A stretch of 64,000 bases of DNA from NCBI GenBank assembly GCA_043820815.1, contig JBDRDJ010000005.1, forward strand, positions 172,734-236,733, given 5' to 3'. The stretch's first letter is position 1; each line of letters begins with the position of its first letter. Shown here piece after piece: positions 1,187-17,088 of the stretch. The notes beneath the pieces are model-generated. The model did no database searches. It was given only the letters and a program-made list of their open reading frames with translations, and had not been told where the DNA came from. Made by a program: the position numbers and the translations under genes. This stretch comes from Candidatus Omnitrophota bacterium (GTDB lineage Bacteria; Omnitrophota; Gorgyraeia; Duberdicusellales; 4484-171).

Positions 1187-1717
1187 CTATAAATTACGCG
1201 GCATAACCCGGCTCAGCGAACGTATGGTTTCATCGCCTCTCTTGATACTTATATCGATAGTTGCGATATTGCCTGCGGCTGAAAGGTTTGTTGCAGGCGG
1301 AGCAAGGCAGTCAAAAGCAACCAGGGTGCCTGCTCCGTAAGTAAAAGTCCCGTTTATCCCGCCGGTTAGAGTTGCTTTTTTTATCTGGTAGCTATCCTGA
1401 TCAAACGCAGGAGGCGGCACATAAGAATCAGCCGCGTTATATAAATAATAAATAGAATAGTTGCTTCCATCAGGGCTAAACCTTATTTCGTTGTAGCCGC
1501 TTGCCGAGCTCATCTCTCTTGCTTCCCTTAAATCCCTTACCATTTTTTCGATAAGCCAGTCACTGTCAATTGAAACCCCGGCTCTTATCTGCTGGCTGGC
1601 TGAGGCAAGAAGTATGGCGCGAAAAACAAGCATTACGGAGGCAACGAGCACAGAGAGCATAACTACAACTACCATAAGTTCAATAAGGGAGAATGCGCCT
1701 TTTTTAGTTTTTTTCAT
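1187..1717 (-). CDS. prepilin-type minor pilin/pseudopilin
   Basis: Internal ATG 1715-1717 gives MKKTKKG|AFSLIELMVVVV, a class III signal with Glu+5. The ORF-track start at 1834 adds 39 non-pilin residues overlapping the upstream gene. Confidence 0.75.
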   Translation of the reverse strand: MKKTKKGAFSLIELMVVVVMLSVLVASVMLVFRAILLASASQQIRAGVSIDSDWLIEKMVRDLREAREMSSASGYNEIRFSPDGSNYSIYYLYNAADSYVPPPAFDQDSYQIKKATLTGGINGTFTYGAGTLVAFDCLAPPATNLSAAGNIATIDISIKRGDETIRSLSRVMPRNL

Positions 1718-1724
1718 TTTCTTG

Positions 1725-2090
1725 TTAATAATCAGAAACCAAAGTTGTAAGAGTAATATTTGCCGCCCCGCCTTTAGTGTTCCAGGAAACAACAACATCA
1801 ACCCGCATAGGGTCATCTCCTTCGGCAATATCAACGGTTACGCTAAATTCGGAAAAATCAGAATCTGCGGCCGGGCCGCTGTCAGATAAGCCGGCAAAAG
1901 AAGTATTTTTGATTTCTTCAAGTTTAGCCTGGGCGATATTTAAAGCAGTGTCAATATATTCGGTTTCGCGGGAAGAGAATAAAGCGGTGTTAAAAGCTTT
2001 TATTACCGAAATAACTCCTACAGAAAAAATGACAAGGGTAATAAGAATCTCAAGAAAAGTAAGGCCGGTTTTTCTTTTGAACTCAAGCAT
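1725..2090 (-). CDS. prepilin-type minor pilin/pseudopilin (GspI-size)
   Basis: MLEFKRKTG|LTFLEILITLVIF prepilin N-terminus; 121 aa. Confidence 0.75.
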   Translation of the reverse strand: MLEFKRKTGLTFLEILITLVIFSVGVISVIKAFNTALFSSRETEYIDTALNIAQAKLEEIKNTSFAGLSDSGPAADSDFSEFSVTVDIAEGDDPMRVDVVVSWNTKGGAANITLTTLVSDY

Positions 2091-2100
2091 CCCATTATAA

Positions 2101-2135
2101 AATCAAAAATTAAATATTAAAAATTAAAATTACAA
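2101..2135. repeat. AT-rich heptad tract, copy 1 of a 3-locus family
   Basis: Five 7-nt units: aatcaaa aattaaa tattaaa aattaaa attacaa. The 17-mer aatcaaaaattaaatat is identical to 16963-16979. Confidence 0.7.
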
Positions 2136-2136
2136 T

Positions 2137-2586
2137 TTAGGGTTGGGTATCAATACCCATGTTTGAGATATAGATACAATCCGAGCCGTTTGTTTCGCTT
2201 ACGGCATCGCTTGAAATAGCTGCACTTCCGGTTGCTCCGGGGCCGACTGAATAAATAATATAATACTTGCTGTTGGTTCCTCCCATAACATAGGCATAGT
2301 CTGCCCCTGATGAACTGAAAGGGTCAGTGGGCACAAAGTTAATGATGCTTGGAACAGCTGACGCTAAAGCGGTTTGAAGGGCTGCGGCGCCGGTTGCCGG
2401 ATAAGCATTATTGTTATGGATATAATAGCTCTCAACCGCCGATTGAAGAGTCCTTAATTCGCTCTTTACCTTAGCGATATTTCCCTCATCGCGCATTCCT
2501 TTAAAGCGCGGAAGAGTTATGCCAATAAGGATACCGATTACGGCAATTACAATTAACAGTTCGATTAAAGTAAAACCTCTTTTCAT
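2137..2586 (-). CDS. major pilin/pseudopilin, GspG/PilA-like
   Basis: ATG 2584-2586 sits behind a GGAGGGG RBS. MKRG|FTLIELLIVIAVIGIL is a canonical N-methylation site. The track start at 2655 is an upstream extension. Confidence 0.8.
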   Translation of the reverse strand: MKRGFTLIELLIVIAVIGILIGITLPRFKGMRDEGNIAKVKSELRTLQSAVESYYIHNNNAYPATGAAALQTALASAVPSIINFVPTDPFSSSGADYAYVMGGTNSKYYIIYSVGPGATGSAAISSDAVSETNGSDCIYISNMGIDTQP

Positions 2587-2626
2587 CCACCCCTCCTTTT
2601 TGATAGTGCCATCTTTAAACTTTCTT

Positions 2627-3841
2627 CTATGCACGCAACAATTTGACCATATCAAACATAGGCAAAAGCAAACTTGCCATAATAAAACCTATTATACACC
2701 CCATTATGACTAAAAACAAGGGTTCAATTATAGTAGTCAGCTTTTTAACGGTGCGATCTATGTAAGTGTCATAAAAATCGGATATTTTATAAAGCATCGC
2801 AGATAACCGGCCTGTGGTTTCACCGGCAGAAACCATCTGAATCATATCGGGAGGAAAATGCTCGCTGTTTTTAAGCGACGCCGCTATGCCACGGCCGGCT
2901 TCAACCGAATCCCGCGCCTCATATACCACTGATGAGATAACTTCATTGCCGATTACCCCTCTTACAATATCTAAAGACTCAAGTATTCCCACTCCGCTTG
3001 CTAAAAGCGTCCCAAGGGTCCGGCATAACCTTGAAAGAGCAACCCTGCTAAGAAGCACACCCATAATAGGAACTTTTAGTTTAAAGGCGTCAAAATACAC
3101 CCTGCCGCGCTTTGAACTTATAAATAATTTTAAACCCGCCCATATGATGAGTATAAAAGCGAAGCCTAAATACCAGTATTGCTTAATCGCATTCCCCACC
3201 TGGTACATAATAAGCGTTACTGCCGGCAATCTTATTCCGGCTTCGATAAAAATCTTCGCAAACTGCGGAATAACAAAGGTTACAATGTAAAGAGTAACGG
3301 CAATGCCGGCTAAAAGAAGTATAAAAGGATAAAAAAGAGCGCCGTTAATCTTCTGGCGAAGCTCCTGCTGCTGTTCACAAAAATATGCATAACGCGAAAG
3401 AATTGCATCGAGTTTTCCGCTGACTTCAGCCACGCTAACCATGCTTATAAAAATCTTTGGAAATACATAGGGGTGCCTTGATAAAGCTTTAGAGAAGCTG
3501 TCTCCGGCTTCAATATTACGTTTTACCTCGCCCATTACTTCTTTAAGCCTTTTATTTGCAATCTGCTCAGAAAGCGCGCCTAAGCTGTCAACTATTGATA
3601 TACCGGCTCCGATCATATTGGAAAGCTGGATATTAAACATGACCATTTCATCTACGCTTACCTTTTTTAACCTTTCAAAAGCCGCCTCTATCGCAATTCT
3701 GGGAGGAGCCTGCTTAACCCGTGTAACCATGTAGCCGGCAGTTGTAAGGCGCTTTATAACATCCTCCTCGGATATACCGTCTAAAGCTCCCCTGGCCAAT
3801 TTACCGTATGAATCGCGCGCTTTGTAATTATAAACCGGCAT
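2627..3841 (-). CDS. pilC: type IV pilus / T2SS platform protein PilC/GspF
   Basis: 404 aa with two T2SSF repeats separated by TM segments. It lies directly downstream of the secretion ATPase. Confidence 0.85.
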   Translation of the reverse strand: MPVYNYKARDSYGKLARGALDGISEEDVIKRLTTAGYMVTRVKQAPPRIAIEAAFERLKKVSVDEMVMFNIQLSNMIGAGISIVDSLGALSEQIANKRLKEVMGEVKRNIEAGDSFSKALSRHPYVFPKIFISMVSVAEVSGKLDAILSRYAYFCEQQQELRQKINGALFYPFILLLAGIAVTLYIVTFVIPQFAKIFIEAGIRLPAVTLIMYQVGNAIKQYWYLGFAFILIIWAGLKLFISSKRGRVYFDAFKLKVPIMGVLLSRVALSRLCRTLGTLLASGVGILESLDIVRGVIGNEVISSVVYEARDSVEAGRGIAASLKNSEHFPPDMIQMVSAGETTGRLSAMLYKISDFYDTYIDRTVKKLTTIIEPLFLVIMGCIIGFIMASLLLPMFDMVKLLRA

Positions 3842-5529
3842 TACTGCTCCTTGGTTACCCGCAATATCTCCTCAAATGTAGTAATACCTTTTTTAACTTT
3901 TTGCAAGCCGTCTTCATATAAAGAAATCATCCCCGTTGATTTAGCATATTGCTCAATTTCATTTATAGATGACTTAGTAATAATCAAATCCCCTATTTTA
4001 GCGTCTATGTTAATCAATTCATAAATTCCCACTCTGCCCCTGTATCCCGTGTTAGAGCACTTAGGGCAGCCGTTTGCCTTAAAAAGCGTTATGCTCTCAT
4101 CAGCCCTTAAGCCCAATTCTTCTTTAAGCTCATTTTGCGGCTCAAAAGCCTGTTTACAATGCACGCAGAGTTTTCTCACAAGCCTCTGGGCAAGGGCGCC
4201 GATTACAGAATACGCCACAAGATAAGGTTCAATGCCCATATTTATTATCCTTAATATTGCTCCTGCCGCAGAGTTTGTATGAAGGGTTGAGAAAACAAGG
4301 TGGCCTGTGAGAGCCGCGTGAGCGGCAATTTCTGCGGTCTCAAAATCCCTGATTTCGCCGACCATGACAATGTCGGGGTCATGCCGCAAAACTGAACGCA
4401 GGCCCGCTGAAAATGTCAGCCCCACTTTGGTATCAACTTGAATCTGGCGGATTCCTCCTAACCGGTATTCAACCGGGTCCTCGATAGTTACGATACTTTT
4501 TTCAACCGTAGAAATCTTGTTCAATGAAGCATAAAGAGTGGTTGTTTTACCGCATCCGGTAGGGCCGGTCACTAAAATTATGCCGTTGGGCGAAGTTATA
4601 AGTTTTTCAAATCCTGAAAGAACCTCTTTGGCAAAACCTAAGCTGGAAAGCTCGCGGCAAGCGTTAGACATGTCCAAAAGGCGCAAAACAACGCTTTCTC
4701 CGTATATGGTCGGTATGGCTGAAGTCCTAATATCAATATTCTTACCCTCAACATTCACATTGAACCTGCCGTCCTGAGGCAAACGCCTTTCGGAAATATC
4801 AAGGTTGGATAATATTTTAACCCTTGAAATTATTGCCGCCTGGATATGCCGCGGCAAAGACGGCTCCTCGTGCATTATCCCGTCAACCCTAAACCTTACT
4901 TTCAACTCTGTTTCTTCAGGCTCAAGATGTATATCGCTGGCATCTTGGTTTACGGCCTTTGCGATCATCAAATTTACCAGCCTTATAACAGCGGGCTCTT
5001 CAACCGCCCCTTTAAGCTGTTCAATGTCAATATCCAATACGTCCTCTGCGGCCGCGTTATCTTGTTTTACGCTTTTTACAATATCCTCAAAAGAACCCTT
5101 TGCACCGTAATATTCATTTATGACTTTTTTTACCTCGGTTTCCGTAGCAACTGCCGGCTCAATAATTAGATTTGTCTTCATCCTTACTTCGTCTAAAGCA
5201 AATATATCCCAGGGATCAACCATGGCGCAGGTTAGGCGGTTGCCGATTTTAAGAACCGGCACAAGATCGTACTTGCGGGCTAACTCTTCGGGAACCACAT
5301 CAATTACCTTAGGGTCGATAACATAATTGCCAAGCTCGATTCTTAAAAGCCCGAGCTTGTTGCTTACAAAAGCGGCAAGGTCTTCCTCGGCAATAAAACC
5401 TTTTTTAACCAAAACTTTAATCAGCCGTTCGCCGGTATTTTTTTCTTCGTCGAGAGCCCCTTTGAGCTGTTCGGTTGTAATCGCCCCCTCTTGCACCAAA
5501 CTGTCTCCGAGAGATTTCTTCGCAGCCAT
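3841..5529 (-). CDS. pilB: type IV pilus / T2SS assembly ATPase PilB/GspE with an N-terminal MshEN-like domain
   Basis: Walker A GPTGCGKTT and tetracysteine CVHC...CPKC. Start moved to ATG 5527-5529, 5 nt after a GGAGGA RBS; the track start at 5559 contains that RBS. Confidence 0.9.
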   Translation of the reverse strand: MAAKKSLGDSLVQEGAITTEQLKGALDEEKNTGERLIKVLVKKGFIAEEDLAAFVSNKLGLLRIELGNYVIDPKVIDVVPEELARKYDLVPVLKIGNRLTCAMVDPWDIFALDEVRMKTNLIIEPAVATETEVKKVINEYYGAKGSFEDIVKSVKQDNAAAEDVLDIDIEQLKGAVEEPAVIRLVNLMIAKAVNQDASDIHLEPEETELKVRFRVDGIMHEEPSLPRHIQAAIISRVKILSNLDISERRLPQDGRFNVNVEGKNIDIRTSAIPTIYGESVVLRLLDMSNACRELSSLGFAKEVLSGFEKLITSPNGIILVTGPTGCGKTTTLYASLNKISTVEKSIVTIEDPVEYRLGGIRQIQVDTKVGLTFSAGLRSVLRHDPDIVMVGEIRDFETAEIAAHAALTGHLVFSTLHTNSAAGAILRIINMGIEPYLVAYSVIGALAQRLVRKLCVHCKQAFEPQNELKEELGLRADESITLFKANGCPKCSNTGYRGRVGIYELINIDAKIGDLIITKSSINEIEQYAKSTGMISLYEDGLQKVKKGITTFEEILRVTKEQ

Positions 5530-5571
5530 GGTTCCTCCTCGGCCTATTAATAAAGGCATTAAAAAACGAAA

Positions 5572-6318: not shown

Positions 6319-9300
6319 TTACAGCAAGAAATTAACCAGCCGTAAGAACAGATGAATATCAATGGGCTTAGGGATTATCGGGATAATCCTCTCTAAAGTG
6401 TAGCCGCCGAGCCGGTCGCTATCAACGGCATAGCCTGACATAACAAGTACGGGTATGTCCTTTGTTTTTGCTTTGGATTTTAACCTCCCTATAACTTCAT
6501 ATCCGTTCATCTTGGGCATTTCCATATCCAAAATAATCAAATCACACGGCTGTTCTTCTACTTTAATAAGTGCTTCTTCTCCGTTACATGCCCCATTACA
6601 GTTTTTATATCCGGCGCTCTCCAGTATTTTCTGGACGCTGGCAACAACAGAAGGCTCATCATCTACAATTACAATTCTTCTTTTTACCTTTTTATCTTTT
6701 TCGCTGATTAGAGACTCCTGGGCTTTGGCTATTAAGCTGGTTGAATCTTTCGCGTTAAAAGGAAAAATAGAATATCCGTATAAGAAATCGAGGTCCTTTT
6801 CATCGGCTACCTCAAATATCGCTTCGTTAAGAACATTATTGATCATTTTCTGGTTTATTTCAGTGCCGTACCTGCTGTTTAATGCTCCCATAATAACGAT
6901 TTCCTCTTCGCCGCGCGCAAAAACCTTATCCGGAGAGGAAACAATTTTCTTCAAAGCATCGATTATATAGTTACGTATTTCCTTAAATTCTTCAATACCG
7001 ATAATCCTTTTAACTTTTTCATAATCATTAACTCTTACGATAAACAAAAAAAGCTTATCGCTCCTTAAGCGTGCCTTTTCGATTTCCTTATCCATAACCG
7101 AACAAATTTCGCTATCCATGGAGAATTTATCTAAAACAAATATAAAAACGGTTCCCGCACCCGGCTGGCTGTCTACGGAAATTTTTCCTCCCTGGGCTTC
7201 AATAATTCCTTTTGAAATGGCTAACCCTAAGCCTGTTCCCTTTTCTTCAGGCCCGGCGTCTCTTCCGAACTGCTGGAATTTATTAAAAACTTTCGGCAAA
7301 TCTTCTTTGGAAATCCCTCTTCCCGTATCGGAAACGCTGCACTCAATTACATCACCTTTAAGCCTGACCGAAACAGTGATAGAACCTTTATCGGTAAACT
7401 TCATGGCGTTGTTTATCAAATTTACGAATACCTGGGTAGTTTTATCTTTGTCAACATAACCTAAAATGGACTCAGAAGAATAGTTTGATTCAATTCTTAA
7501 CCCTTTAGTTTCTGCCTGGGGCCTAAAAGTATCAATGGTATATTGCGCCAATTTAATTATATCTGAACATTCTTTTTGTATCTTAACCTTTCCTGCCTCT
7601 ACTCTCGACATATCAAGAAGATTATTTATTATCCTTGTTAAGCGGTCAATATTCCTGATGCAGAGCTCTAAAAATACCCCCTGCTTCTCATTTATCTGGC
7701 CTAAGATTCCTTCGTATACTTGAGCCACTGATTCACGTATAGATGTAAGAGGGGTTCTTAGCTCATGAGACACTGCAGAAATAAAATCATTCTTCATCCG
7801 CTCAACTTGTTTTTCTTGGGTAATATCTCTGAAAATTGATAAAACTCCTAAAACATTACCGTTTTCATCCATTACCGGAGAAATATCACAGTTAAGGATT
7901 AACTCTTTATCCTTGTTTTTAACTACTACTTCTTTGCTTACCGCCTTCTTTTCTTTCTCGCAAGTGCCTAAATCTTTGTCTAATTTCAGCGATATCATCT
8001 TTCTCATAAGAAGCCCTATTGAAACATCCGTATCAGGGCCGAACCCGAGCATCTGGCGTGCCTTCGGGTTTAATACGGCAATCTCTCCTCTTTCATCGGT
8101 CATAATCACTCCCTCGGCCATGCTTTCAACCATGCTGTCCATCTTTGACTTCTGAGCCAGCATGACCGATTGTAAGCGCTCGATAGCATGCGAAGCCTGG
8201 TTGACAACCGTTGTCGCCAGCTTGACTTCTTCTTCGCTGAAAGCCGATTCTCTTACGCTTGAGAAATTCATCATTCCTATGATTTTACCCCTTACGACAA
8301 AAGGTATGTTAATAGAAGTATTTATTGCATCACGCGATGAATCGCAATCGTTTGACTCAGTGCACGCCTCGAGCATGGTAAATGTAACATCGTCGTTGTA
8401 AACACTGTGGCCGGATTCTGAAAATAAAGCGTCAACGAGTATCTTCTTTGCCTGTTCAGCAAATTTTACGTATTCAGGACAAGCCGGTTTTACAGCCAGA
8501 TTGGCTGTGTGTGAGTCAAAAATAACAGAAGAACATATATCGTATTTAACTATTTTATAAAGCGCCTCCATAATTATTGTTAAAAGCTGCTGGTGATCAA
8601 GTGTATATGCCATGGCGTTTGAAACTTCATAAAGCACAGAAATCTCAGCTGTCCTTTCCTCTATTTTCTTCTCAAGCTTAGTTGACTTATTCTTCTGGGT
8701 TTCTGCCTGGGCAGACATTGCTACCAATTCGCTTTCGCGACCGAAAAGAAGCTCTATCTCTCTTATGTCACGGGCCGTTGACACAATGTCGGTTAAAACG
8801 CCTTCTGTATCTCTTAAGGCTGACGCTGTCAGAATTACGGGAATCTCAAGGCCTGATTTTAACAAAAAAGAAACATTGTGCTCTCTGATTATTTTTCCCT
8901 GACTGAGCTGCACCATCCGGCTTTCGTTAAAGAAATCACTTTTGGCAAAAACAAAATCTGCGGCCCTGCCAACAAGCTCATCCTCTCTGTAGCAGGTTAA
9001 ATTACTCATGGCCTCATTTACCATTTTAATTTTCTTATCACCAGATACAACCATAAGGGCATCGCTCATTGTCTTTAAAATATTGCATAAATAATCTTTG
9101 GATCTATTAAGCTCGCCTATTAAATTCCTGTTGTCAACAGATAAGCGCCTTAAAAGTACGGCCTTATTGGTTACTGATATTATCCTGTCGATGTCGGAGA
9201 AAGGCTTGGTTATAAAATCATAAATACCAATCTCCATAGCCTCGACCGCAGACTCCATCGTCCCGTATCCGGTTATCATTATCCCCATGGTGTCGCTGCG

Positions 9301-9522
9301 TATATCTTTTATTTTCTTAAATAATTCGAGCCCGTTAATGCCGGGCAGGGAAAGGTCGATGATAGCAAGAGAAAACTCATTCTCCCGGGCTAGAGAAAGC
9401 GCCTCATTACTGTCAACGGCGCAAAGAACTCCGTAGCCCTCGGACTTCAATACCCTTGAAAGGCTGTCTCTCATTTCCTTCTCGTCATCGACTATTAAAA
9501 TCTTTTCATTAATATCGTCCAT
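6319..9522 (-). CDS. hybrid sensor histidine kinase: REC-PAS-GAF-PAS-HisKA-HATPase-degenerate GGDEF-REC
   Basis: N-terminal receiver (ILIVDDE..DLSLPGING), H-box SHELRTPLTSI and HATPase DTGRGI..GTGLGLAI. A GGDEF-like module has GEEEI in place of GGDEF. C-terminal receiver (IVIVDDE..LDMEMPKMNG). Confidence 0.85.
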   Translation of the reverse strand: MDDINEKILIVDDEKEMRDSLSRVLKSEGYGVLCAVDSNEALSLARENEFSLAIIDLSLPGINGLELFKKIKDIRSDTMGIMITGYGTMESAVEAMEIGIYDFITKPFSDIDRIISVTNKAVLLRRLSVDNRNLIGELNRSKDYLCNILKTMSDALMVVSGDKKIKMVNEAMSNLTCYREDELVGRAADFVFAKSDFFNESRMVQLSQGKIIREHNVSFLLKSGLEIPVILTASALRDTEGVLTDIVSTARDIREIELLFGRESELVAMSAQAETQKNKSTKLEKKIEERTAEISVLYEVSNAMAYTLDHQQLLTIIMEALYKIVKYDICSSVIFDSHTANLAVKPACPEYVKFAEQAKKILVDALFSESGHSVYNDDVTFTMLEACTESNDCDSSRDAINTSINIPFVVRGKIIGMMNFSSVRESAFSEEEVKLATTVVNQASHAIERLQSVMLAQKSKMDSMVESMAEGVIMTDERGEIAVLNPKARQMLGFGPDTDVSIGLLMRKMISLKLDKDLGTCEKEKKAVSKEVVVKNKDKELILNCDISPVMDENGNVLGVLSIFRDITQEKQVERMKNDFISAVSHELRTPLTSIRESVAQVYEGILGQINEKQGVFLELCIRNIDRLTRIINNLLDMSRVEAGKVKIQKECSDIIKLAQYTIDTFRPQAETKGLRIESNYSSESILGYVDKDKTTQVFVNLINNAMKFTDKGSITVSVRLKGDVIECSVSDTGRGISKEDLPKVFNKFQQFGRDAGPEEKGTGLGLAISKGIIEAQGGKISVDSQPGAGTVFIFVLDKFSMDSEICSVMDKEIEKARLRSDKLFLFIVRVNDYEKVKRIIGIEEFKEIRNYIIDALKKIVSSPDKVFARGEEEIVIMGALNSRYGTEINQKMINNVLNEAIFEVADEKDLDFLYGYSIFPFNAKDSTSLIAKAQESLISEKDKKVKRRIVIVDDEPSVVASVQKILESAGYKNCNGACNGEEALIKVEEQPCDLIILDMEMPKMNGYEVIGRLKSKAKTKDIPVLVMSGYAVDSDRLGGYTLERIIPIIPKPIDIHLFLRLVNFLL

Positions 9523-9640
9523 AACTCACAACAGAAAATAATAATTATTGCTCTGGCCTTAACAAAAAAACACTATTATTACTGCATTTTACCAATATTA
9601 TCTTACTATATTGAAAATGAACTTCAACATAAACTTTACT

Positions 9641-9690
9641 GGGCATCCCCATATAAAATTATTTATATGTTAATAATAATAGGGATGCCC
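9641..9690. repeat. nested inverted repeat between the two kinase genes
   Basis: gggcatccc (9641-9649) pairs with gggatgccc (9682-9690). An inner 8-bp hairpin is catataaa/tttatatg (9650-9669). It lies 42 nt after the upstream kinase stop. Confidence 0.5.
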
Positions 9691-9731
9691 ATGATTGCAT
9701 CGATTAAATACAGATTTCAGAGATAAAAAAT

Positions 9732-11900
9732 TTATGTCTTTTTATTGGGCAATTCGATAAAAAAAGCCGCTCCTTTCATATATTCTGATTCAAACCAAAT
9801 TCTGCCATCGTGGTTTTCCTCTACCATTCTTTTTACAACGTATAATCCTATTCCTGTTCCGGAAATCTGAGAAGATTTAGTGGTAAAAAAAGGAGCAAAA
9901 ACCTTCTTTTTGTCTTCTTCGAGCATGCCAAGGCCGTTATCGCTTATTTTAATCTGGTAATTATCCTGATTGTAAAACACCTCTAAATGAATCAGGGGTT
10001 TAAAACCTTCTTTATCCTCCTGGGATAAGTGATATTTAACTTTATCTGAAATTGACTCGTAAGCATTGTCGACAATATTATAAAGACACTCCATGATCTG
10101 GCTCTTTATGCCGAAAAGTTTATCGGAATCGGATATTTTATGAACAAGGGGAAACTCGTTAATCTGATGTTTTACTTTGGCAAGATTTATAACGTTTTGT
10201 AATATTTCCTGCAATGAGAATTCAGAAAAAAATGCTGCTTTTTCTTCTACCCGGGCATAGTTAAGAATTCCTTGTATAACCTCGGCTGTCCGTTTAACCT
10301 CCCCTGATATAGACTCTGATAACTTCATGAGATAATCGAGTGTTTTTTTAATTTCCGGATGCTTCTCTATAAGCCCGGGGTTATCTTTATAAAAATCCTC
10401 AATTTCATACTGTTGTTCTCCCGCGGCTACGGAAAAACTATTCAGGCGGTTTCTCATCTGATGAGCCACACCGTCTGCCATGCCCCCGATTGAGGCCAGC
10501 TTCTCGGCCATAAATATTTTTTCCTGGACTTTCTTGGATTCTTCAAGAAAAATACAGTATTCTATAGCCAAAGCAGCCTGGCGCGAAAGGATATCAAATA
10601 CATTTATGTCATCCTGCGTATAAAAACTCCTATCCTTTTTTTCACCCAAAAGCAAAAACCCGAGAAGCTTATGGTCAACAAAAGAAGGAATTACCAAACG
10701 CACGGGCTCATCTAATAATAACTTAAGCAGCGGCTCGATCTCTTCATAAAGCAAGGGGCCTTTCTTTGTATGTAAAATTGTGACAAGAGGGTCGGAGGCC
10801 TTAAAACTATAATTGCGCGGTAAATTACTTTTATTGCGCATAGCCCGAAGGTTATACGAATCCGTATCGGCATTGTAAAGAAAAATTGAGACAAACTCTA
10901 TTTTAACCGCGCGCTTAACTACCATTACAATAAGCTTGAGCAAACGCTCTAAGTTGTGTTCTCTTACCATGCCTTTAGCTGCATCAAGCAGAGTCTTCTG
11001 ATAATGTTTTTGCTGGGCAAGAAGAATGTTTTCCGCTTTATGCTGTAAATATCTAAATATTAAAGGGCCGGCTGTTGCAAAAATAACTGCAACCGACACA
11101 GGTACTATCCAGAAACCAACCCCCAGAACCCGAAACCCGATCCAGAAAGGCACGCCTAAAACTAAGGTGTAAACCGTTAAGAAAATGCCCGCGCGGGTTA
11201 CCGCTACCCTTATGTCCATTAGGCGGTATTTGATAATCGCGTAAGTAAAAAGGAAAATATACAGGGGTATAAAAGGAACCCCCACAGGGTGAAGATTTAT
11301 GCCGCATATAACCGGAAGAAGAGTTGAGCCGCCTGTCAATCCTATAAGGACGGCTAAGAGAAAGTATTTAATTTGATTGCGCTTAAGCCCTGTTGCTTTT
11401 CGCATTGACGAATAAAGCTCCCAAAGGACTAAAGCAGGAGAAACCGTATTTAAGATTAATTGAAAGATATAGGTTGGCCCGGGAACTTCATAAAAGTATG
11501 AGTGCAATTTAATTGTAACGCCGGCTATAAAAAACTTTGTCCCGGTAAAAAGATCTATAAGGTTAAAAACAAAAGGGATTAAAGCAAGAATGAATATGCC
11601 CTGGATAACGGATTTGCGCTCTTTTTCCTTGCCGAGAATAGAAACAATACTGTCATAAAGCTGCGCATACAAATACACCGAACCAATATAGAGAAAATGG
11701 CTCCAGAAAACCGCACTGGCTTTATCCTCGACTACTAGAAGCTTATACCTTCCTACAGCCCAAACCATAACGCCAAGCTGAAGTATTGCCCAGCTGACGT
11801 TTCCTCTTTTCTTGGGCCCTTTGTAAAGTACAAATAATCCTATGGCTAATGCACCAAAGGCAGAAATTAAATAAGTTGCCTTATAAACAAAAAGAAACAT
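9732..11900 (-). CDS. membrane sensor histidine kinase: about 8 N-terminal TM helices, GAF, HisKA-like, HATPase
   Basis: Hydrophobic N-terminal ~290 aa, H-box DGVAHQMRNRLN, and ATPase DNGLGM...GTGIGLYVV. Confidence 0.85.
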   Translation of the reverse strand: MFLFVYKATYLISAFGALAIGLFVLYKGPKKRGNVSWAILQLGVMVWAVGRYKLLVVEDKASAVFWSHFLYIGSVYLYAQLYDSIVSILGKEKERKSVIQGIFILALIPFVFNLIDLFTGTKFFIAGVTIKLHSYFYEVPGPTYIFQLILNTVSPALVLWELYSSMRKATGLKRNQIKYFLLAVLIGLTGGSTLLPVICGINLHPVGVPFIPLYIFLFTYAIIKYRLMDIRVAVTRAGIFLTVYTLVLGVPFWIGFRVLGVGFWIVPVSVAVIFATAGPLIFRYLQHKAENILLAQQKHYQKTLLDAAKGMVREHNLERLLKLIVMVVKRAVKIEFVSIFLYNADTDSYNLRAMRNKSNLPRNYSFKASDPLVTILHTKKGPLLYEEIEPLLKLLLDEPVRLVIPSFVDHKLLGFLLLGEKKDRSFYTQDDINVFDILSRQAALAIEYCIFLEESKKVQEKIFMAEKLASIGGMADGVAHQMRNRLNSFSVAAGEQQYEIEDFYKDNPGLIEKHPEIKKTLDYLMKLSESISGEVKRTAEVIQGILNYARVEEKAAFFSEFSLQEILQNVINLAKVKHQINEFPLVHKISDSDKLFGIKSQIMECLYNIVDNAYESISDKVKYHLSQEDKEGFKPLIHLEVFYNQDNYQIKISDNGLGMLEEDKKKVFAPFFTTKSSQISGTGIGLYVVKRMVEENHDGRIWFESEYMKGAAFFIELPNKKT

Positions 11901-11920
11901 AGTTTATTGAGGTACAATTT

Positions 11921-13093
11921 TTACGAGAGGTTTTTTAAATAATGGCGCAAGCTGAACAGTTTAGCTCTTTTACGGGTAAATTCCCTGATATTTTGCTTCT
12001 TCGGATAAGAATGATAAGTTCCAATTCCTATATCCTGCTGGGATACTTTCTCAAGGACATCATATTCAATTTTCCTTATAGCCTTAATAATGAGCTCTGC
12101 GCCGATATTAAGCAGCCGGCAGTTTAATGATAAAACTGAATCTCCCGCCCTTACTTTGGCTTCTTGCTGATGCACGATATCGCCTTCATCAAGTTTTTCA
12201 TTCATAAAATGGACAGTAACACCAACCCTGTCTTTACCTTGTTTTAAAGCCCAAAATGTCGGGAACGGCCCCCTGAATTCGGGAAGGAGCGCATAATGAA
12301 GGTTAATTGCACCGTATTTAGGTATTTCAAGCATGGGATTTCTCACCCTCTGGTCAAAGTGACAGGAGATAATCAACTCTGGCTCAATATTTTTCATACG
12401 TTTAAGAACCCGCTCGCTGTTGATGGCATCGGTTTCAATCACCGGTATCACATATTGTTTTGCAATTTCTTCTATTGTATAAACCCCTGAAGCCCTCCTG
12501 AACAGATGAACCGAAAACCATCTTAAAAGACGGATAAAGAAATTATGAAGAATTACATAGAAAGAAGAATAAACAACAAACAAAAGCCCCGAATCTTTAA
12601 GGTTATTAAGAGTCTGCTTTACCATTGACCCCCTGCGTTTACTGAAGCGTTCTGACAAACATATAAGAGAAATTTTATCGCTGAACTCCTTTATTATTTT
12701 TCTAAGCGCAATATTTGAATACAGGCTGTCAAGAGTTAAGATTACAATTCTGTTTATTTTCTTAAGGCTTAAGAATGAGTCAATCCTATCAAACCAATCC
12801 TGGCTGATTTTGGTAAATTCAAAACCCGCCTCCCAGCGACAATTTTTATCTTTATCGCGGGGCGCCACATTGACCCACACCACTTTCGCTTCATTGTAAA
12901 AAGGCTTACTTGAAAACATAAAACCAAGGTTAACGGCCTGGCCTATGTTTAAGGGCCCGTCTAATTGCGCCATTAAGCCAAACGGGTTTAAATCTATAAT
13001 TTCAGCTTTTATGCTTTGATTATTTGATTTTAGGTCTAACCCGATACGGATTCTCCTGCGGGGAAATGATCGCTTATCAAAAATATGCTTCAT
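11921..13093 (-). CDS. PilZ-like domain fused to a formyltransferase-family catalytic domain
   Basis: N-terminus has RRRIR (RxxxR) and DLNPFG (D-x-N-x-x-G; canonical is D/NxSxxG). The C-terminal half has AINLHYALLPEFRGP and LDEGDIV, matching the N/H/D catalytic triad pattern of Fmt/PurN-type formyltransferases. A hydrophobic insert reads LLFVVYSSFYVILHNFFIRLLRWF. Confidence 0.65.
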   Translation of the reverse strand: MKHIFDKRSFPRRRIRIGLDLKSNNQSIKAEIIDLNPFGLMAQLDGPLNIGQAVNLGFMFSSKPFYNEAKVVWVNVAPRDKDKNCRWEAGFEFTKISQDWFDRIDSFLSLKKINRIVILTLDSLYSNIALRKIIKEFSDKISLICLSERFSKRRGSMVKQTLNNLKDSGLLFVVYSSFYVILHNFFIRLLRWFSVHLFRRASGVYTIEEIAKQYVIPVIETDAINSERVLKRMKNIEPELIISCHFDQRVRNPMLEIPKYGAINLHYALLPEFRGPFPTFWALKQGKDRVGVTVHFMNEKLDEGDIVHQQEAKVRAGDSVLSLNCRLLNIGAELIIKAIRKIEYDVLEKVSQQDIGIGTYHSYPKKQNIREFTRKRAKLFSLRHYLKNLS

Positions 13094-14292
13094 GATTTAG
13101 TTATATTTAATTTGTTATCTATCTTTTCCATGACATCGAGCAGCGATTTAATCTGAGCCTCGGTATGTAAACTCATAACCGTAAACCTTATCCTGGCTTT
13201 TTTCTTTTCAACAGCCGGCCACCTGACGCAGGGAGCAAAATATCCTTCCTGAAAAAGCAAGCCAGCGGCTTTTATCGCTTTTGCTTCATCTTTTATCAAA
13301 ACAGGTATTATCTGAGACTGGCTGGTTAAAATATCAAAGCCTCGAGATTTAAATCCTTCACGAAGCATCCTCGCGTTTTCAAGAAGAATTTTACGCGGGG
13401 AGCTGTTATTCTTTATTTCCTCTAAAGCGGCTAAAATAGCCGCTATTAAAACAGGCGACGAGGCGGTTGCAAAAACATAAGAGCGGGCCCCGATACGTAA
13501 ATATTTAATAAGCTCTTTTTTTCCGGCTATGTAGCCTCCCAGCACACCGATTGCCTTGCTGAAAGTTCCCATTTTAATATCGATATCGTTGTCTAAACCA
13601 AAATGCTCTGCGGTTCCGCTTCCGGTCTTGCCAAGAATTCCCGTTGCATGCGCATCATCAACCATAGTTAAGGCCTTATACTTTTTGGCAAACCCGGCAA
13701 TAACATCCAAGGGAGCAATATCTCCGTCCATGCTGAAAATTCCGTCGGTCACGATCAATTTCCTGGTTCTACTGTATTTTTTAAGTTTTTTCTCAAGATC
13801 CCTCATATCGCAATGGCCGTAAACCACAACTTTTGCTTTGCTCAACTTACAACCGTCTATAATACTTGCATGGTTAAATTCATCGCTAAAAATTACAGTC
13901 TTTTCTTTTGCCCGCGGCAGAAAAGCGATATTATTCAAATTCGCAACCGCAGAAATAGTCCCCACATTCGCCATATAACCGGCAGTGAAAACCATTGCAT
14001 CATCGGATTTTTTAAATTCAGCCACCTTTCTTTCAAGCTTTTCAAATATGGCAAGGTTGCCCGAAAGAAGTCGGGAACCGCTTGAACCTACGCCATACTC
14101 TTTTGCAGCCTTGATTGCCGCTTTAACGAGCAAATCCGATGAGGCTAAACCCAAATAATTATTGGAACAAAAAGAAATAACTTTTTTACCGTTAATTATC
14201 TGAACCGGCACCGGGGGGCTGGATACAGTCTTTATATCCGGATATAAACCATAATCCTCCCAGAGGCTAAGAATTTTCTTAATACTATCCAT
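13090..14292 (-). CDS. PLP-dependent alpha-oxoamine synthase family (BioF/Kbl/SPT/CqsA class); substrate unknown
   Basis: NNYLGL, NHASIIDG, DDAHATG and the GTFSKAIG PLP-lysine motif; 400 aa. Confidence 0.85.
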   Translation of the reverse strand: MDSIKKILSLWEDYGLYPDIKTVSSPPVPVQIINGKKVISFCSNNYLGLASSDLLVKAAIKAAKEYGVGSSGSRLLSGNLAIFEKLERKVAEFKKSDDAMVFTAGYMANVGTISAVANLNNIAFLPRAKEKTVIFSDEFNHASIIDGCKLSKAKVVVYGHCDMRDLEKKLKKYSRTRKLIVTDGIFSMDGDIAPLDVIAGFAKKYKALTMVDDAHATGILGKTGSGTAEHFGLDNDIDIKMGTFSKAIGVLGGYIAGKKELIKYLRIGARSYVFATASSPVLIAAILAALEEIKNNSSPRKILLENARMLREGFKSRGFDILTSQSQIIPVLIKDEAKAIKAAGLLFQEGYFAPCVRWPAVEKKKARIRFTVMSLHTEAQIKSLLDVMEKIDNKLNITKS

Positions 14293-14308
14293 GTGTTTAT
14301 ATATTAAG

Positions 14309-15400
14309 TCAATATAGCTGATTTACTGATATAAAACCCTTGCGTTTAAGGCTGTTTTTTATCGTTTGTATTTTATCTAAACTTATAACCTCCTCATGGG
14401 AGGTTAACGGCCCGATCCGAAATCCGTGCTTTAACGCGGCCTGAAATATAGATATAGCTTTTTGCGAAAAAAGGTCTTTTCCTAAAGTGTAAGGCTCAAA
14501 GCGGCCTTCAAAGGCAAGTGTAATTGCCTCAGACATACAAGGATAACATAACCCCTCATCAAGCCCGAAATAACAATTAAATTTAGGTTTTCCCGGAGGT
14601 TCCATGGCAAGGCCGTCAATGAGAAAAATATCTTCTCTCTCTATGGAAATACTGCGCGGGTATGATGCATCAAAAACTATCGCGCCTTTTTTTAAGTACT
14701 CTTCTTTGAAGCTTACCGGATGGCGGTTAGTTGCGTTAATTACAATATCCATATCTTTAAGAATATACTTGGGATCTGTTGATGTAATTACTGCTTTTTT
14801 ATTTGTTTCGGGAGAAAAACGGTCAGAAAGCGAACTTCTTTTATCGGCAGAAGATTGAAAAACATAAACCGTGCTGCAGGAAGAACCCATCTGCCTGACA
14901 ACAACATCGACTGCCGCATTTGCCCCAAAAGCAAAAACCTTAAGGTTCCTGCTGCTTACGCCTAAAACAGCCAATGATTTAAACAAAGCCTCAGGGATTA
15001 CCGCAACAGTCATGTGCAAGCCGTTTGTTACGGGCACACCTACCCTGTCCATGACTTTTTTTCCTTTTTGGCCGACAAAAGCAGCGTATGCAACAAGGCA
15101 AATAAGGCTTGCATGGGAATCTTTAGCAAATTTGGCGGCTTTAACTACCCGGTTAAGAACACGGCGGGGATTTAACAAAAGCATCTGCTCTGTAAGCAAA
15201 GAACACATCACAAAATCACCGTTAAAAACTTCACCGGTAACCTCAGACTTTATCCCTTCAATTACGGCCGCCCTAAACGGAGGCGCTAATTCCAGCAGTC
15301 TTTTGGCAACTTCGATAGGAAGCCTCTTCATGCCTGGCTCATAGCGAAAGAGAAATTTCCTGCTAACCGGATGAAATATTATAGAAACCTTACTTTGCAT
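14309..15400 (-). CDS. acyl-ACP reductase (AAR)-like / shikimate-DH-fold oxidoreductase homolog
   Basis: Collinear by eye with my recollection of cyanobacterial AAR. Examples: PCMSEAITLAFEG against ACFAEAMLLEFEG, and AALKHGF against ASVRHGF. The dinucleotide loop is degenerate: FGANAAVD. Confidence 0.5.
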   Translation of the reverse strand: MQSKVSIIFHPVSRKFLFRYEPGMKRLPIEVAKRLLELAPPFRAAVIEGIKSEVTGEVFNGDFVMCSLLTEQMLLLNPRRVLNRVVKAAKFAKDSHASLICLVAYAAFVGQKGKKVMDRVGVPVTNGLHMTVAVIPEALFKSLAVLGVSSRNLKVFAFGANAAVDVVVRQMGSSCSTVYVFQSSADKRSSLSDRFSPETNKKAVITSTDPKYILKDMDIVINATNRHPVSFKEEYLKKGAIVFDASYPRSISIEREDIFLIDGLAMEPPGKPKFNCYFGLDEGLCYPCMSEAITLAFEGRFEPYTLGKDLFSQKAISIFQAALKHGFRIGPLTSHEEVISLDKIQTIKNSLKRKGFISVNQLY

Positions 15401-15836
15401 TTTTGACAGCCGCCTTCCTAATGCTTTGCATAAAACTTCTAAACATTAACCTGGATTTGCGTTCTAAAACTGGAGATAATGCCTCCTCAAAAGCGGGAAT
15501 TCCCCAGTCAATGACAGCGGAAACCGACAATATGCTTTTTCCTTTTTTTGTCGGCGTAATTTGCCAGCAGCCTTCATACCTATTAAAATCTCCCCGTTCA
15601 AGCTTAAAAGAAATGTTTGCCTTATCAGTATCTAAGATGTCTCTCTGCTGCCACTTAATTCTGATCTTGGCTATTTCTACTTCCCAAGCGGTAACCATTG
15701 TGTTTGCCTCTTTAGTTATGACTTTCAGGCTCTTTAAGTTGGGCGCTTTACTTAAGAGCAAATCCGGCTTTTGCCATATTCTTAAAAGGCGCACAGGAGG
15801 AACATTAATTAATGATTTTAAATTGATTTGATACAT
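15390..15836 (-). CDS. SRPBCC (polyketide cyclase/dehydrase, lipid-binding) family protein
   Basis: 148 aa with a START/Bet v1-like pattern (W..W.....F.LE.GDF....G.W). First gene behind the predicted promoter. Confidence 0.6.
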   Translation of the reverse strand: MYQINLKSLINVPPVRLLRIWQKPDLLLSKAPNLKSLKVITKEANTMVTAWEVEIAKIRIKWQQRDILDTDKANISFKLERGDFNRYEGCWQITPTKKGKSILSVSAVIDWGIPAFEEALSPVLERKSRLMFRSFMQSIRKAAVKNAK

Positions 15837-15866
15837 ATCTTCATAAATTTCATATATATATATAAT

Positions 15867-15894
15867 ATTTTAGCTTATATAAAAGGGGTGTCAA
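15867..15894 (-). promoter_or_regulatory. predicted sigma70-type promoter of the SRPBCC operon
   Basis: Minus strand reads TTGACA (15889-15894), a 16-nt spacer, then TAAAAT (15867-15872). An (AT)n run follows in the short 5' UTR. Confidence 0.45.
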
Positions 15895-15916
15895 GAAGCG
15901 ATTAAGGCGGGTAGAA

Positions 15917-16945
15917 TTAACTGCGGATTAGATTTTCGGCTATTTGAACAGCGTTTAACGCGGCGCCTTTTCTAAGGTTGTCGGAAACACACCAAAGCCA
16001 AAAGGAATTATCCTCATAGGGGTCTCGGCGAAGCCTGCTTACGAAAACACAATCACACCCCTGGCTGTCTAAAGGCAGAGTAAATGAATCTGCGCAGTAG
16101 CTGACCCCTTCGGATTTTCTAAGCGCGCCGGTGAGCTCATCTATATTTGCGTTTTTGCGGGTCCTAAAATAAATTGCCTCCGAATGAGAAGTAAAAACAG
16201 GTACTCTCACACAAGTAGAACTAATTTTTATCGAAGAATCACCGAATATTTTATGTGACTCCTCAACCACCTTAATCTCCTCTGAGGTATAGCCGTTTTC
16301 GTCATATTCGCCTATTTCAGGAATCACATTGAACGCAATCTGGCGGCTGAACCCCAAAGGGGAACAACTCAGGCCGGCTTTACCAAGAGAATAAAAATCT
16401 TTGCCCTTATTTCTATCGATTAAGATTTTTACCTCTTCCCATAATCCCAAAACCGCATTTTTGCCGGCGCCTGAAACAGCCTGAAAACTTGTAAGGATAA
16501 TTTTCTCAAGGCCGAAGGCTTTATAAATACCTCCTAATGCAACAACAGCCTGAATGGTCGTGCAATTAGGATTAGCAATAAGGCCCTTGTGTTTTGATAT
16601 CTTGTCTCTGTTTACTTCCGGAACAATCAACGGCACATTATCATTTAAGCGAAAATCTTTGCCGTTATCAATAACTACTGCGCCTTTTTCAATAAATTCT
16701 TTAGCGTAAAGAAGGCTTGCTCCTTTTTCTCCTTCGGTTCCGGCAAACAGTGCTATATCAACACCGGAAAAATCGCTGCCTTCGATAGCTTCCACTTCGT
16801 AAGAAAAACCTTCCACATCAATTCTTCGCGAAGACCTTGCAAAAACTCTAAGCTTAGAAACCGGGAAACTCCGCTCTCTTAAAATTTTTAAAATCTCAAC
16901 CCCCACTACCCCGACACCGATTACGGCTACGTTATATTTCTTCAT
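15917..16945 (-). CDS. asd: aspartate-semialdehyde dehydrogenase
   Basis: N-terminal VAVIGVGVVG Rossmann loop and the active-site ANPNCTTIQ. Confidence 0.9.
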   Translation of the reverse strand: MKKYNVAVIGVGVVGVEILKILRERSFPVSKLRVFARSSRRIDVEGFSYEVEAIEGSDFSGVDIALFAGTEGEKGASLLYAKEFIEKGAVVIDNGKDFRLNDNVPLIVPEVNRDKISKHKGLIANPNCTTIQAVVALGGIYKAFGLEKIILTSFQAVSGAGKNAVLGLWEEVKILIDRNKGKDFYSLGKAGLSCSPLGFSRQIAFNVIPEIGEYDENGYTSEEIKVVEESHKIFGDSSIKISSTCVRVPVFTSHSEAIYFRTRKNANIDELTGALRKSEGVSYCADSFTLPLDSQGCDCVFVSRLRRDPYEDNSFWLWCVSDNLRKGAALNAVQIAENLIRS

Positions 16946-16962
16946 GTTTTCACTTAATTTTA

Positions 16963-17082
16963 AATCAAAAATTAAATATCAAATATCAAAATGACAATGT
17001 AAAAAACAAAATCTTAAGATTTAAATCTAAACATTTTGAATTTTTATTTGTCATTTTAATATTTACATTTTGATTTTTAATT
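16963..17082. repeat. AT-rich heptad-periodic palindromic element (full copy)
   Basis: Left arm has 7 heptads (16963-17011). The central perfect palindrome is AGATTTAAATCT (17017-17028). Right arm has 7 heptads (17034-17082) that approximate the reverse complement of the left arm. Confidence 0.75.
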
Positions 17083-17088
17083 TAACGC

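Follow-up and report, generated by a model that had tools for sequence, protein, structure and literature searches.

A four-gene operon abutting a HisKA_7TM kinase gene in an Omnitrophota genome: a candidate unit for making and sensing a hydrophobic small molecule

What does a bacterium make with an alpha-oxoamine synthase (AOS) whose gene is packed between those of a lipid-binding-fold protein and a formyltransferase, and why is a membrane histidine kinase encoded directly behind them? The question is raised by a 64,000-nucleotide stretch of the 238-kb contig JBDRDJ010000005.1 (assembly GCA_043820815.1, forward-strand positions 172,734 to 236,733) from a Candidatus Omnitrophota bacterium, called the window here and numbered from its first letter. 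All genes of the region lie on the minus strand of this 64-kb window, as judged from open reading frame (ORF) translations. Four of them encode an SRPBCC/START-fold protein, a protein with the fold of thioester reductases (RED), the AOS, and a PilZ domain fused to a formyltransferase (PilZ::FMT); a HisKA_7TM-GAF kinase follows. The answer that we prefer, and to which we give slightly better than an even chance, is that operon and abutting kinase form a unit that makes and senses a hydrophobic small molecule. The features concerned, with lengths in nucleotides (nt) and amino acids (aa), are as follows.

15867..15894, minus strand: sigma-70-type promoter TTGACA-16-TAAAAT, about 30 nt 5' of the SRPBCC start codon
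15390..15836, minus strand: SRPBCC/START-fold protein, 148 aa (Pfam Polyketide_cyc, E 4e-12)
14309..15400, minus strand: RED, an AAR/PigE-N-type thioester-reductase-fold protein, 363 aa (NCBIfam and a PDB profile)
13090..14292, minus strand: AOS, 400 aa (Aminotran_1_2, E 3e-58), with the pyridoxal phosphate (PLP) lysine, Lys246, at nt 13555-13557
11921..13093, minus strand: PilZ::FMT gene (Pfam PilZ and Formyl_trans_N)
12776..13078, minus strand: PilZ domain of the fusion, aa 6-106 (Pfam PilZ, E 6e-9)
11924..12751, minus strand: N10-formyl-tetrahydrofolate (THF)-type formyltransferase domain of the fusion, aa 115-390 (Pfam Formyl_trans_N, PF00551, E 1e-23)
9732..11900, minus strand: HisKA_7TM-GAF histidine kinase, 722 aa (Pfam, hydropathy)

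An earlier note on this DNA had claimed a good promoter ahead of four overlapping or abutting genes, and the site, the ORF coordinates, and the spacing all agree. SRPBCC and RED overlap by 11 nt, RED and AOS are separated by 16 nt, AOS and PilZ::FMT overlap by 4 nt, and the kinase gene starts 20 nt past the operon, as had also been stated. With 11 of 12 positions matched, the promoter is the top site of the 7.8 kb scanned (9400-17200). Because the 21 promoter-like sites in that region nearly equal the 18.5 expected from shuffling, the evidence is limited to the quality and position of this one site. The genes 5' of the operon are asd and leuB/D/C.

Is the AOS simply an enzyme of biotin synthesis? 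Its catalytic set (H141, D212, H215, and K246 in TFSKA) is complete, just as had been claimed, and NCBI names the protein BioF, 8-amino-7-oxononanoate synthase. On the TIGR00858 bioF model, it scores 427.1 bits versus a cut-off of 426.45, i.e., at threshold. It falls below the cut-offs of the KBL, SPT, ALAS, and CqsA/LqsA models, with 196.3 bits versus 428 on the CqsA/LqsA model NF005526 and 366.9 versus 640, 321.8 versus 500, and 258.6 versus 670 bits on the three NCBIfam SPT models. Family placement was judged from relative HMM and PDB scores. Among solved structures, the promiscuous Thermus enzyme ThAOS (7poa) is the best match (1e-85), followed by the Sphingobacterium SPT (3a2b, 1.5e-80) and KBLs. 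ThAOS, SPT, and KBL structures give 223-292 bits versus 163-209 bits for characterized BioF structures, and CqsA structures are matched at E 3e-25 only. Homologs at 50-66% identity are plentiful and almost all of the best 120 matches are labeled BioF; the named sources among those 120 are solely Omnitrophota, Patescibacteria, or an unclassified "bacterium." We place the AOS in a probable clade of its own that goes with HisKA_7TM kinases and take it most likely not to be an ordinary BioF. A crude motif scan of ORFs of at least 120 aa over the 64 kb found no BioB YNHN motif, BioD P-loop, or class-III aminotransferase motif, and biotin genes are also lacking in the six AOS-homolog contexts described below, in keeping with the earlier statement that bioA, bioD, and bioB are not nearby. 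Sphingolipid partner genes had been called missing as well; no acyl carrier protein (ACP), ceramide-synthase, or CerR-type genes are present near the operon, and the AOS-homolog loci hold no such partners either.

What would the two genes upstream of the AOS contribute? The SRPBCC assignment made earlier is borne out by the Polyketide_cyc match. Among solved structures, the Thermus START protein TTHA0849 comes closest (E 2.6e-9), and the SRPBCC protein is presumed to carry a hydrophobic substrate or product. RED had been introduced as a homolog of the fatty acyl-ACP reductase (AAR) family; the fold stands, but the PigE/TamH domain is nearer than the cyanobacterial AAR. In NCBIfam, RED matches the PigE N-terminal domain at E 1.6e-30 and the AAR model TIGR04058 at E 7.5e-7, with 28.8 bits versus a cut-off of 449.7 on the latter and a score likewise far below the PigE cut-off; no Pfam family matches at its cut-off. 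A profile of eight RED homologs finds PigE (4ppm, 1.7e-29) and AAR (6jzq, 6e-15) in the PDB. Cys288 of RED (nt 14537-14539) aligns with C296 of PigE and C294 of AAR, discussed as the acyl-accepting residue (PMC8341465), and is retained in 11 of 12 RED-clade sequences. The Gly-rich NAD(P) loop is degenerate, reading FGANAAV (nt 14909-14929) with a one-residue deletion and departing from the canonical GxGxxG, unlike the paralogous RED2 clade and the aminotransferase fusions, in which a GA(T/S)GSIGS loop is retained. "Reductase" is therefore a label for the fold of RED rather than an established activity.

The thioester-reductase domains of PigE and TamH turn thioesters into aldehydes (PMC8341465, PMC9594044), and distant RED relatives are fused to class-III aminotransferases, as those domains are. 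RED shares the fold and the active-site cysteine of PigE, TamH, and AAR. It differs from them in standing alone beside an SRPBCC protein, with no aminotransferase or aldehyde-deformylating oxygenase (ADO) partner, in its degenerate loop, and in scoring below both cut-offs. A cyanobacterial-type alkane pathway (AAR plus ADO) was rejected because the AAR model is so far from its cut-off; no ADO-like gene was noticed among the neighbors, although no dedicated search for ADO was made. RED homologs are uncommon (12 by word-indexed search, 311 representatives at E<=1e-30 by exhaustive profile search). Close homologs come essentially from Omnitrophota alone, and the entry with 100% identity is a hypothetical protein from a Candidatus Omnitrophota metagenome-assembled genome.

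The fourth gene is indeed the PilZ-formyltransferase fusion that had been proposed, as the two Pfam matches verify. Its PilZ part has the motif R8xxxR12 and, as second motif, D34-L-N-P-F-G39, with Asn where (D/N)x(S/A)xxG has Ser/Ala; homologs keep this second motif (canonical DLSQGG in P0015, NITPFG in P0014). An AlphaFold model of the fusion (pLDDT 84.9) places a beta-barrel at aa 13-93 of the PilZ part, which from its sequence is presumed to be an input for cyclic di-GMP (c-di-GMP). The model superposes on the ArnA N-domain with an rmsd of 2.4-3.1 A, and Foldseek with the formyltransferase model returns ArnA and Fmt as best matches (E 1e-17 to 1e-18). The triad N264/H266/D302, aligned to the NLH...D motif of ArnA, is intact and invariant in nine homologs, and a three-helix hydrophobic insert (aa 157-196, hydrophobic segment 169-187) is typical of the clade. 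A housekeeping role as Fmt or PurN was rejected: both models are below cut-off (97.1 versus 201.5 bits on the Fmt model TIGR00460, with no Formyl_trans_C domain), a PilZ domain is fused, and the gene overlaps that of the AOS. The domain resembles ArnA-type and sugar N-formyltransferases in fold, in the Asn-His-Asp triad, and in an SLLPxxRG-type motif. It also shares their logic, in which a PLP enzyme yields a primary amine and the product of the next, overlapping gene formylates it, as in the DegT-FMT-GT2 order around P0017. It is unlike them in that sugar-nucleotide genes are absent, an AOS takes the place of DegT, a PilZ domain sits at the N terminus, and neither a Formyl_trans_C nor a dehydrogenase domain is present.

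The kinase has a 7TM region at aa 10-230, remains hydrophobic to about aa 276, and continues into a GAF domain (aa 318-447) and a HATPase domain (aa 600-720). Pfam finds HisKA_7TM (PF16927) at 47.4 bits versus a cut-off of 28.6 and HATPase_c at 71.5 bits, with no receiver (REC). The kinase of about eight transmembrane (TM) helices plus GAF described earlier is thus recovered as HisKA_7TM, further hydrophobic segments, and GAF. It is presumed to be the receptor of the unit.

Are these genes found beside such kinases elsewhere? About 20 independent loci from relatives were surveyed in all. A HisKA_7TM protein is encoded next to the AOS in six of six other homolog contexts (51-65% identity, Omnitrophota and the ultra-small Patescibacteria), and in five of the six, the protein is a kinase whose gene abuts that of the AOS or follows it on the same strand at a distance of one or two genes. 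With HK for histidine kinase and RR for response regulator, the six read as follows.

L018, Omnitrophota (source-named): RED-AOS-258aa-HK-RR
L028, Omnitrophota-type: SRPBCC-RED-AOS-260aa-HK-RR..GAF-HD
L029, Omnitrophota (source-named): SRPBCC-RED-RED2-AOS-257aa-ICMT-HK-RR-GAF-HD
L030, Parcubacteria: AMP-binding-AOS-247aa-HK
L034, Patescibacteria-type: AMP-binding-7TM-AOS-HK
L031: 7TM-thioesterase-AOS, with a HisKA_7TM protein without kinase core two genes upstream

L031 was the one locus returned by a metagenome scan that used a single AOS protein query and over-specific peptide patterns. The general layout of L030 and L034 is alpha/beta hydrolase, AMP-binding enzyme, AOS, and kinase; Patescibacteria proteins adjoining HisKA_7TM kinases share 52-53% identity with the window AOS. 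What sits between synthase and kinase? Usually it is a conserved protein of about 250 aa with a weak acetoacetate-decarboxylase (ADC) signal (Pfam ADC, E 5e-4 in two of four members), for which the PDB sequences hold no significant match (best E 0.011). A formyltransferase is a rare occupant of the slot, seen in the window, in L010, where PilZ-FMT is followed by an HK 52% identical to the window kinase, and in L011/L012, with the order AOS-FMT-HK. In L018, L028, and L029, a GAF-HD protein comes after kinase and receiver. Homologous kinases stand 3' of RED, AOS, or FMT in L001, L003, L008, L010, L011, L015, L018, L020, L022, L028, L029, L030, and L034.

Two further features of the AOS loci may be mentioned. 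HisKA_7TM proteins of about 230-330 aa without a kinase core are encoded near the AOS in L030 (1-1805, three in tandem), L031 (5053-6039), and L034 (6290-6997); on its own, the 7TM module may serve in ligand binding or export or as a decoy. In L028, a 120-aa ORF without Pfam match (5039-5398) lies between SRPBCC and RED, and a partial copy of it (6496-6705, 81% protein identity) follows RED just before the AOS gene.

Loci anchored on RED tell a parallel story. An SRPBCC gene is directly 5' of RED in every RED-anchored locus of Omnitrophota type, and the two are fused as SRPBCC-RED in P0170, P0172, and P0177 and as PilZ-SRPBCC-RED in P0168, P0171, and P0175; an HTH-PilZ-SRPBCC-RED fusion also exists. 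Such fusions show that SRPBCC and RED act jointly and that input by c-di-GMP is a repeated theme. Of the 11 RED-anchored loci whose sequence extends far enough downstream, 9 have a HisKA_7TM kinase 3' of RED. What lies between RED and the kinase varies.

L003: RED2 only
L015, L020, and, across inserted toxin-antitoxin genes, L019: RED2 and a B12-radical-SAM protein
L008, L022: CoaB/CoaC, with or without a transglutaminase-core protein
L001/L002: CoaB, a HAD phosphatase, and AfsA (PF03756, E 3.4e-12)
L018, as well as the AOS-anchored L028 and L029: AOS and the protein of about 250 aa

In L021, a RED2-like gene is followed directly by the kinase, and in the minimal form, L032, the HisKA_7TM gene overlaps a PilZ-SRPBCC-RED fusion gene. 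Do the four genes of the window then travel together, as their co-occurrence would require? The AOS-7TM and SRPBCC-RED-kinase pairings recur, but as a set of four the genes are not fixed: the SRPBCC-RED pair can be parted from the rest and occurs without AOS, and Patescibacteria have AOS-X-kinase units without SRPBCC-RED. There are two sub-modules, SRPBCC-RED and AOS-X, each persistently tied to HisKA_7TM kinases, and the window operon combines both.

The surveyed loci hold other genes at or within the module. Transglutaminase-core proteins are encoded beside it in L008 (3501-4232) and L022 (11639-12388), both from Omnitrophota and of about 245 aa, and in the Patescibacteria-type L034 (10549-15024, 1,491 aa). 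Mobile or defense genes, among them Gp49/HTH toxin-antitoxin, PD-(D/E)XK nuclease, AAA_14/DUF4143 ATPase, Fic, and AbiEi/AbiEii, are inserted in L007 (3367-3908), L018 (9535-9915), and L019 (12134-16659), with the ends of the module kept. CoaB-like (DFP) and CoaC-like (Flavoprotein) genes are found in L001 (4344-4982), L008 (2106-3493), L016 (2225-3416), L017 (11089-11718), and L022 (11095-13066) and not in the window; judged by sequence, they resemble a phosphopantothenoylcysteine synthetase and decarboxylase split into separate genes. Their adjacency may mark a functional link to phosphopantetheine thioesters or merely old synteny. In L013, from an Omnitrophota genome, positions 11355-19536 hold SRPBCC-RED, then an exosortase (EpsH), an EpsI-like DUF3485 protein, a sugar transferase, a TPR protein, and a PrsK-like kinase with receiver, a PEP-CTERM/exopolysaccharide locus where the 7TM kinase would sit.

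Is there a known system of this kind? The earlier note had likened the layout to the Vibrio CqsA/CqsS and Legionella LqsA/LqsS systems, in which, as in the window, the genes of a PLP enzyme of the AOS family and of a polytopic membrane histidine kinase are neighbors. Acyl-CoA and an amino donor are joined in these systems into amino- or hydroxy-ketone signals that are sensed by a TM domain; amino-ketone derivatives are active ligands in Cqs, where an NADPH-dependent dehydrogenase completes CAI-1 (PMC3376566). CqsS and LqsS consist of a six-TM sensor followed directly by HisKA/HATPase, with a further REC in CqsS (PMC3376566), whereas the window kinase is HisKA_7TM plus GAF and has no REC. The window AOS, for its part, falls short of the CqsA/LqsA model, and SRPBCC, RED, formyltransferase, and PilZ have no counterpart in Cqs/Lqs. 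The likeness therefore holds for the tie between an AOS and a polytopic kinase but not for the families, the AOS being outside CqsA/LqsA and the kinase not CqsS-like.

The tie itself has been noticed before. Bernard et al. 2020, a bioinformatic census by homology to CqsA and CqsS and without experiments, counted 362 CqsA homologs in the candidate phyla radiation (CPR) and found 51 in synteny with CqsS-like kinases (PMC7567580). These probably belong to the same AOS clade as that of the window, so an AOS-kinase pairing in CPR would not be new. The passages of that paper on CqsA, LqsA, and CqsS mention no Omnitrophota, SRPBCC-RED, ADC-like or formyltransferase partners, PilZ/HD links, or AfsA variant. 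Beyond that paper, our literature searches brought up nothing on the Omnitrophota architecture, the SRPBCC-RED core with its fusions, or the c-di-GMP links, and nothing on the formyltransferase, ADC-like, AfsA, and radical-SAM alternatives. For HisKA_7TM, the search gave census or review papers on archaeal and eukaryotic histidine kinases, and we found no described ligand of the domain. None of the 15 papers listed for Omnitrophota together with quorum sensing, AfsA, or CqsA mentions Omnitrophota, and a search for oxoamine synthase with formyltransferase and kinase brought up nothing pertinent. The earlier remark that no pathway with this gene combination is described thus stands for the combination but must yield on AOS-kinase synteny in CPR, which PMC7567580 already reports in the passages cited.

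What tips the balance toward a signal? AfsA and AOS are unrelated enzyme families, both known for lipid-derived, released bacterial signals. The presence of AfsA, another autoinducer-synthase family, in the slot of L001/L002 strengthens a signaling reading, and its pairing there with a HAD phosphatase parallels the AfsA-plus-phosphatase biosynthesis of gamma-butyrolactone/butenolide signals. The parallel has its limits: there is no AfsA in the window, and the gamma-butyrolactone receptors known so far are TetR-family proteins of the cytoplasm rather than membrane kinases. c-di-GMP parts also recur, as PilZ on the window formyltransferase, as PilZ on SRPBCC-RED fusions, and as GAF-HD proteins after HK-RR. 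With AfsA in the same slot and these PilZ/HD parts, a signaling unit that produces and senses its own molecule is the best reading.

Where would the signal go? The hybrid kinase, two receivers, and pilB, pilC, and pilin genes that had been described downstream are present, the hybrid kinase by Pfam and the rest from translations.

6319..9522, minus strand: hybrid kinase, 1067 aa (Pfam: REC-PAS-GAF-PAS-HisKA-HATPase, a GGDEF-like stretch, REC)
5940-6308 and 5572-5937, minus strand: two single-domain response regulators (translations, receiver similarity)
1187..5559, minus strand: type IV pilus genes, read from translations, with pilB at 3841-5559 and pilC at 2627-3841
2137-2655, 1725-2090, and 1187-1834, minus strand: pilins (prepilin N termini such as GFTLIELLIV in the translations)

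The hybrid kinase, 209 nt past the 7TM kinase across a gap with a weak terminator-like (9701..9684) and a weak promoter-like (9565..9538) sequence, is probably its phosphorelay partner. Its GGDEF-like stretch (Pfam E 1.4e-4, below cut-off) reads, by eye, ARGEEEI instead of RxGG(D/E)EF and is probably not an active cyclase. The pilB translation has GspE-type ATPase motifs, that of pilC is PilC-like and polytopic, and the type IV pilus genes are a possible output of the system.

How might the parts work together? The SRPBCC/RED pair would capture an acyl thioester (acyl-ACP or acyl-CoA), and RED would either deliver a fatty aldehyde to the pocket of SRPBCC or keep the acyl group and pass it on. 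The AOS would condense an amino acid with the acyl thioester to an alpha-amino-ketone (or 2-amino-3-keto acid), and the formyltransferase would N-formylate its primary amine from N10-formyl-THF, stabilizing an amino-ketone that would otherwise self-condense; the fused PilZ domain would place this step under c-di-GMP control. The product would then enter the membrane and be read by the 7TM region of the kinase, encoded in the same predicted operon, which would act through the hybrid kinase and receivers on the type IV pilus genes. The proposed chemistry follows from the protein families, and we infer the substrates, the products, the order of steps, the activity of RED, and the identity of the kinase ligand with the pathway product. 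At the same level, the signal might be released, as in quorum sensing, or act on the producing cell.

A wider proposal, tentative and more doubtful than the unit itself, is that Omnitrophota and Patescibacteria share a family-wide plan. In it, the SRPBCC/thioester-reductase fold would form a core that supplies or carries the acyl part, and swappable head-group cassettes (AOS plus formyltransferase, AOS plus ADC-like protein, AfsA plus phosphatase, or reductase paralog plus B12-radical-SAM) might yield lineage-specific signals. HisKA_7TM-GAF kinases would be the receptors, and c-di-GMP may both gate production, through the PilZ fusions, and be an output, through GAF-HD. The product in the window might then be an N-formyl amino-ketone lipid.

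Several points weigh against the make-and-sense unit. (i) The role of RED is its weakest link, as AOS and AfsA chemistry need no aldehyde, and window-type RED, without the canonical loop, may reduce nothing. (ii) The AOS formally passes the bioF model. (iii) No 7TM kinase lies near SRPBCC-RED in L013 and L016, and in five Omnitrophota loci SRPBCC-RED adjoins coaB/coaC genes of housekeeping appearance. (iv) HisKA_7TM genes are numerous in these genomes, with four in 13 kb of L030, which raises the background chance of adjacency. (v) Pairwise identities of the kinase sensor domain, taken as the first 300 aa, give no sign of co-evolution with RED (r = -0.08, 45 pairs) or AOS (r = 0.03, 21 pairs). 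The most similar sensors, at 40-46%, are those of the three Omnitrophota AOS+ADC loci; in two Patescibacteria loci the AOS proteins are 74% identical, yet the sensors are 18% identical. (vi) P0017, the closest stand-alone formyltransferase relative with a readable context, sits in an Arn-like amino-sugar setting, so the substrate may be a sugar.

Could the product be a structural lipid instead? This alternative survives best, although we regard it as unlikely. The pathway would make an aminolipid or sphingoid-like membrane lipid, with the AOS in the role of SPT, a reductase, and N-formylation replacing N-acylation, and the kinase would monitor or regulate envelope lipid composition rather than read a signal made for the purpose. 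The start of bacterial sphingolipid synthesis (Spt, a reductase, and an N-acyltransferase) is indeed similar in its AOS-family condensation, reduction, and N-substitution of the amine, and the AOS matches the Sphingobacterium SPT almost as well as its best match. The SPT models, however, are far from their cut-offs (e.g., 367 versus 640 bits), the reductase is of another fold family, the N-substituent would be formyl, and the ACP, ceramide-synthase, and CerR-type genes are missing. Other lipid traits are the continuation of L029 into MGDG-synthase, lipid A acyltransferase-like, and GT2 genes, the coaB/coaC neighbors in five loci, the hydrophobic insert and Arn-like relative of the formyltransferase, and the acyl-activating AMP-binding enzyme and hydrolase that the Patescibacteria loci add. 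Against these, the AfsA cassette and the PilZ/HD parts point to signaling, and the abutting kinase-receiver layout is kept without other lipid genes in L003 and L032. From sequence data alone, a signal and a structural lipid cannot be told apart.

A less probable account, which we consider quite unlikely, has nothing secreted at all. Here SRPBCC-RED would sample the acyl-ACP/acyl-CoA pool and present an acyl-derived ligand to the 7TM kinase. At the same low probability, the output would be fatty-acid/CoA status, with AOS and formyltransferase as lineage-specific modifiers. Such internal metabolic sensing would suit the minimal conserved unit of SRPBCC-RED plus HisKA_7TM kinase, which has no synthase (L003, L021, L032), the proximity to coaB/coaC, and a degenerate NAD(P) loop with the cysteine kept, which fits acyl binding over turnover. 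Against it stand the AOS-X-kinase units of Patescibacteria, which have no SRPBCC-RED, and the released signals for which the AfsA and AOS families are known. Gene order inherited without functional coupling in a slowly rearranging lineage is very unlikely: most loci do come from one phylum and HisKA_7TM paralogs are abundant, but AOS-7TM adjacency spans two phyla with otherwise differing neighbors, the SRPBCC-RED and PilZ-SRPBCC-RED domains are fused, and the pairings survive while the surroundings change at every locus, even across the toxin-antitoxin/defense inserts of L007, L018, and L019. Ordinary biotin synthesis, with the AOS as BioF and the neighbors unrelated, is the least credible, because its two supports, the NCBI name and a bioF score at threshold, face better matches to ThAOS, SPT, and KBL than to BioF structures, the lack of bioA/bioB/bioD motifs in 64 kb and of biotin genes in the six homolog contexts, the restriction of named homologs among the best 120 matches to Omnitrophota, Patescibacteria, and unclassified "bacterium," and an AOS stop codon that overlaps the formyltransferase start codon; to our knowledge, biotin and fatty-acid synthesis are generally missing from Patescibacteria.

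Why would a make-and-sense unit matter? Omnitrophota and Patescibacteria are abundant and almost wholly uncultivated, and attachment to other cells is the presumed lifestyle of many; we know of no mechanism by which they sense partners or density. If the reading is true, the "BioF" label is a systematic misannotation over two phyla, the HisKA_7TM sensor domain gains its first functional handle, and N-formyl amino-ketones possibly join the known bacterial signal chemistries. Should the wider plan also be true, the N-formyl amino-ketone lipid of the window would be an undescribed signal chemotype with control over the type IV pili of a bacterium that possibly lives attached to a host. The compact five-gene unit suits expression in Escherichia coli, which makes the molecule, its reading by the kinase, and the c-di-GMP gating directly testable.

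Some features of the window remain to be described. The last gene of the pilin cluster (303-1127) encodes a 274-aa protein with an N-terminal hydrophobic segment and a C terminus that by eye is discoidin/carbohydrate-binding-like; it may be a pilus-tip adhesin. The window holds no tRNA genes and no riboswitch or leader RNA match to Rfam at gathering thresholds. At 19950-21463, where a search for significant repeats found none, about 800 bp of low-GC (0.35), apparently noncoding DNA precede a small gene pair (20772-21080 and 21059-21463) that, judged from the sequences, resembles a nucleotidyltransferase/HEPN toxin-antitoxin system.

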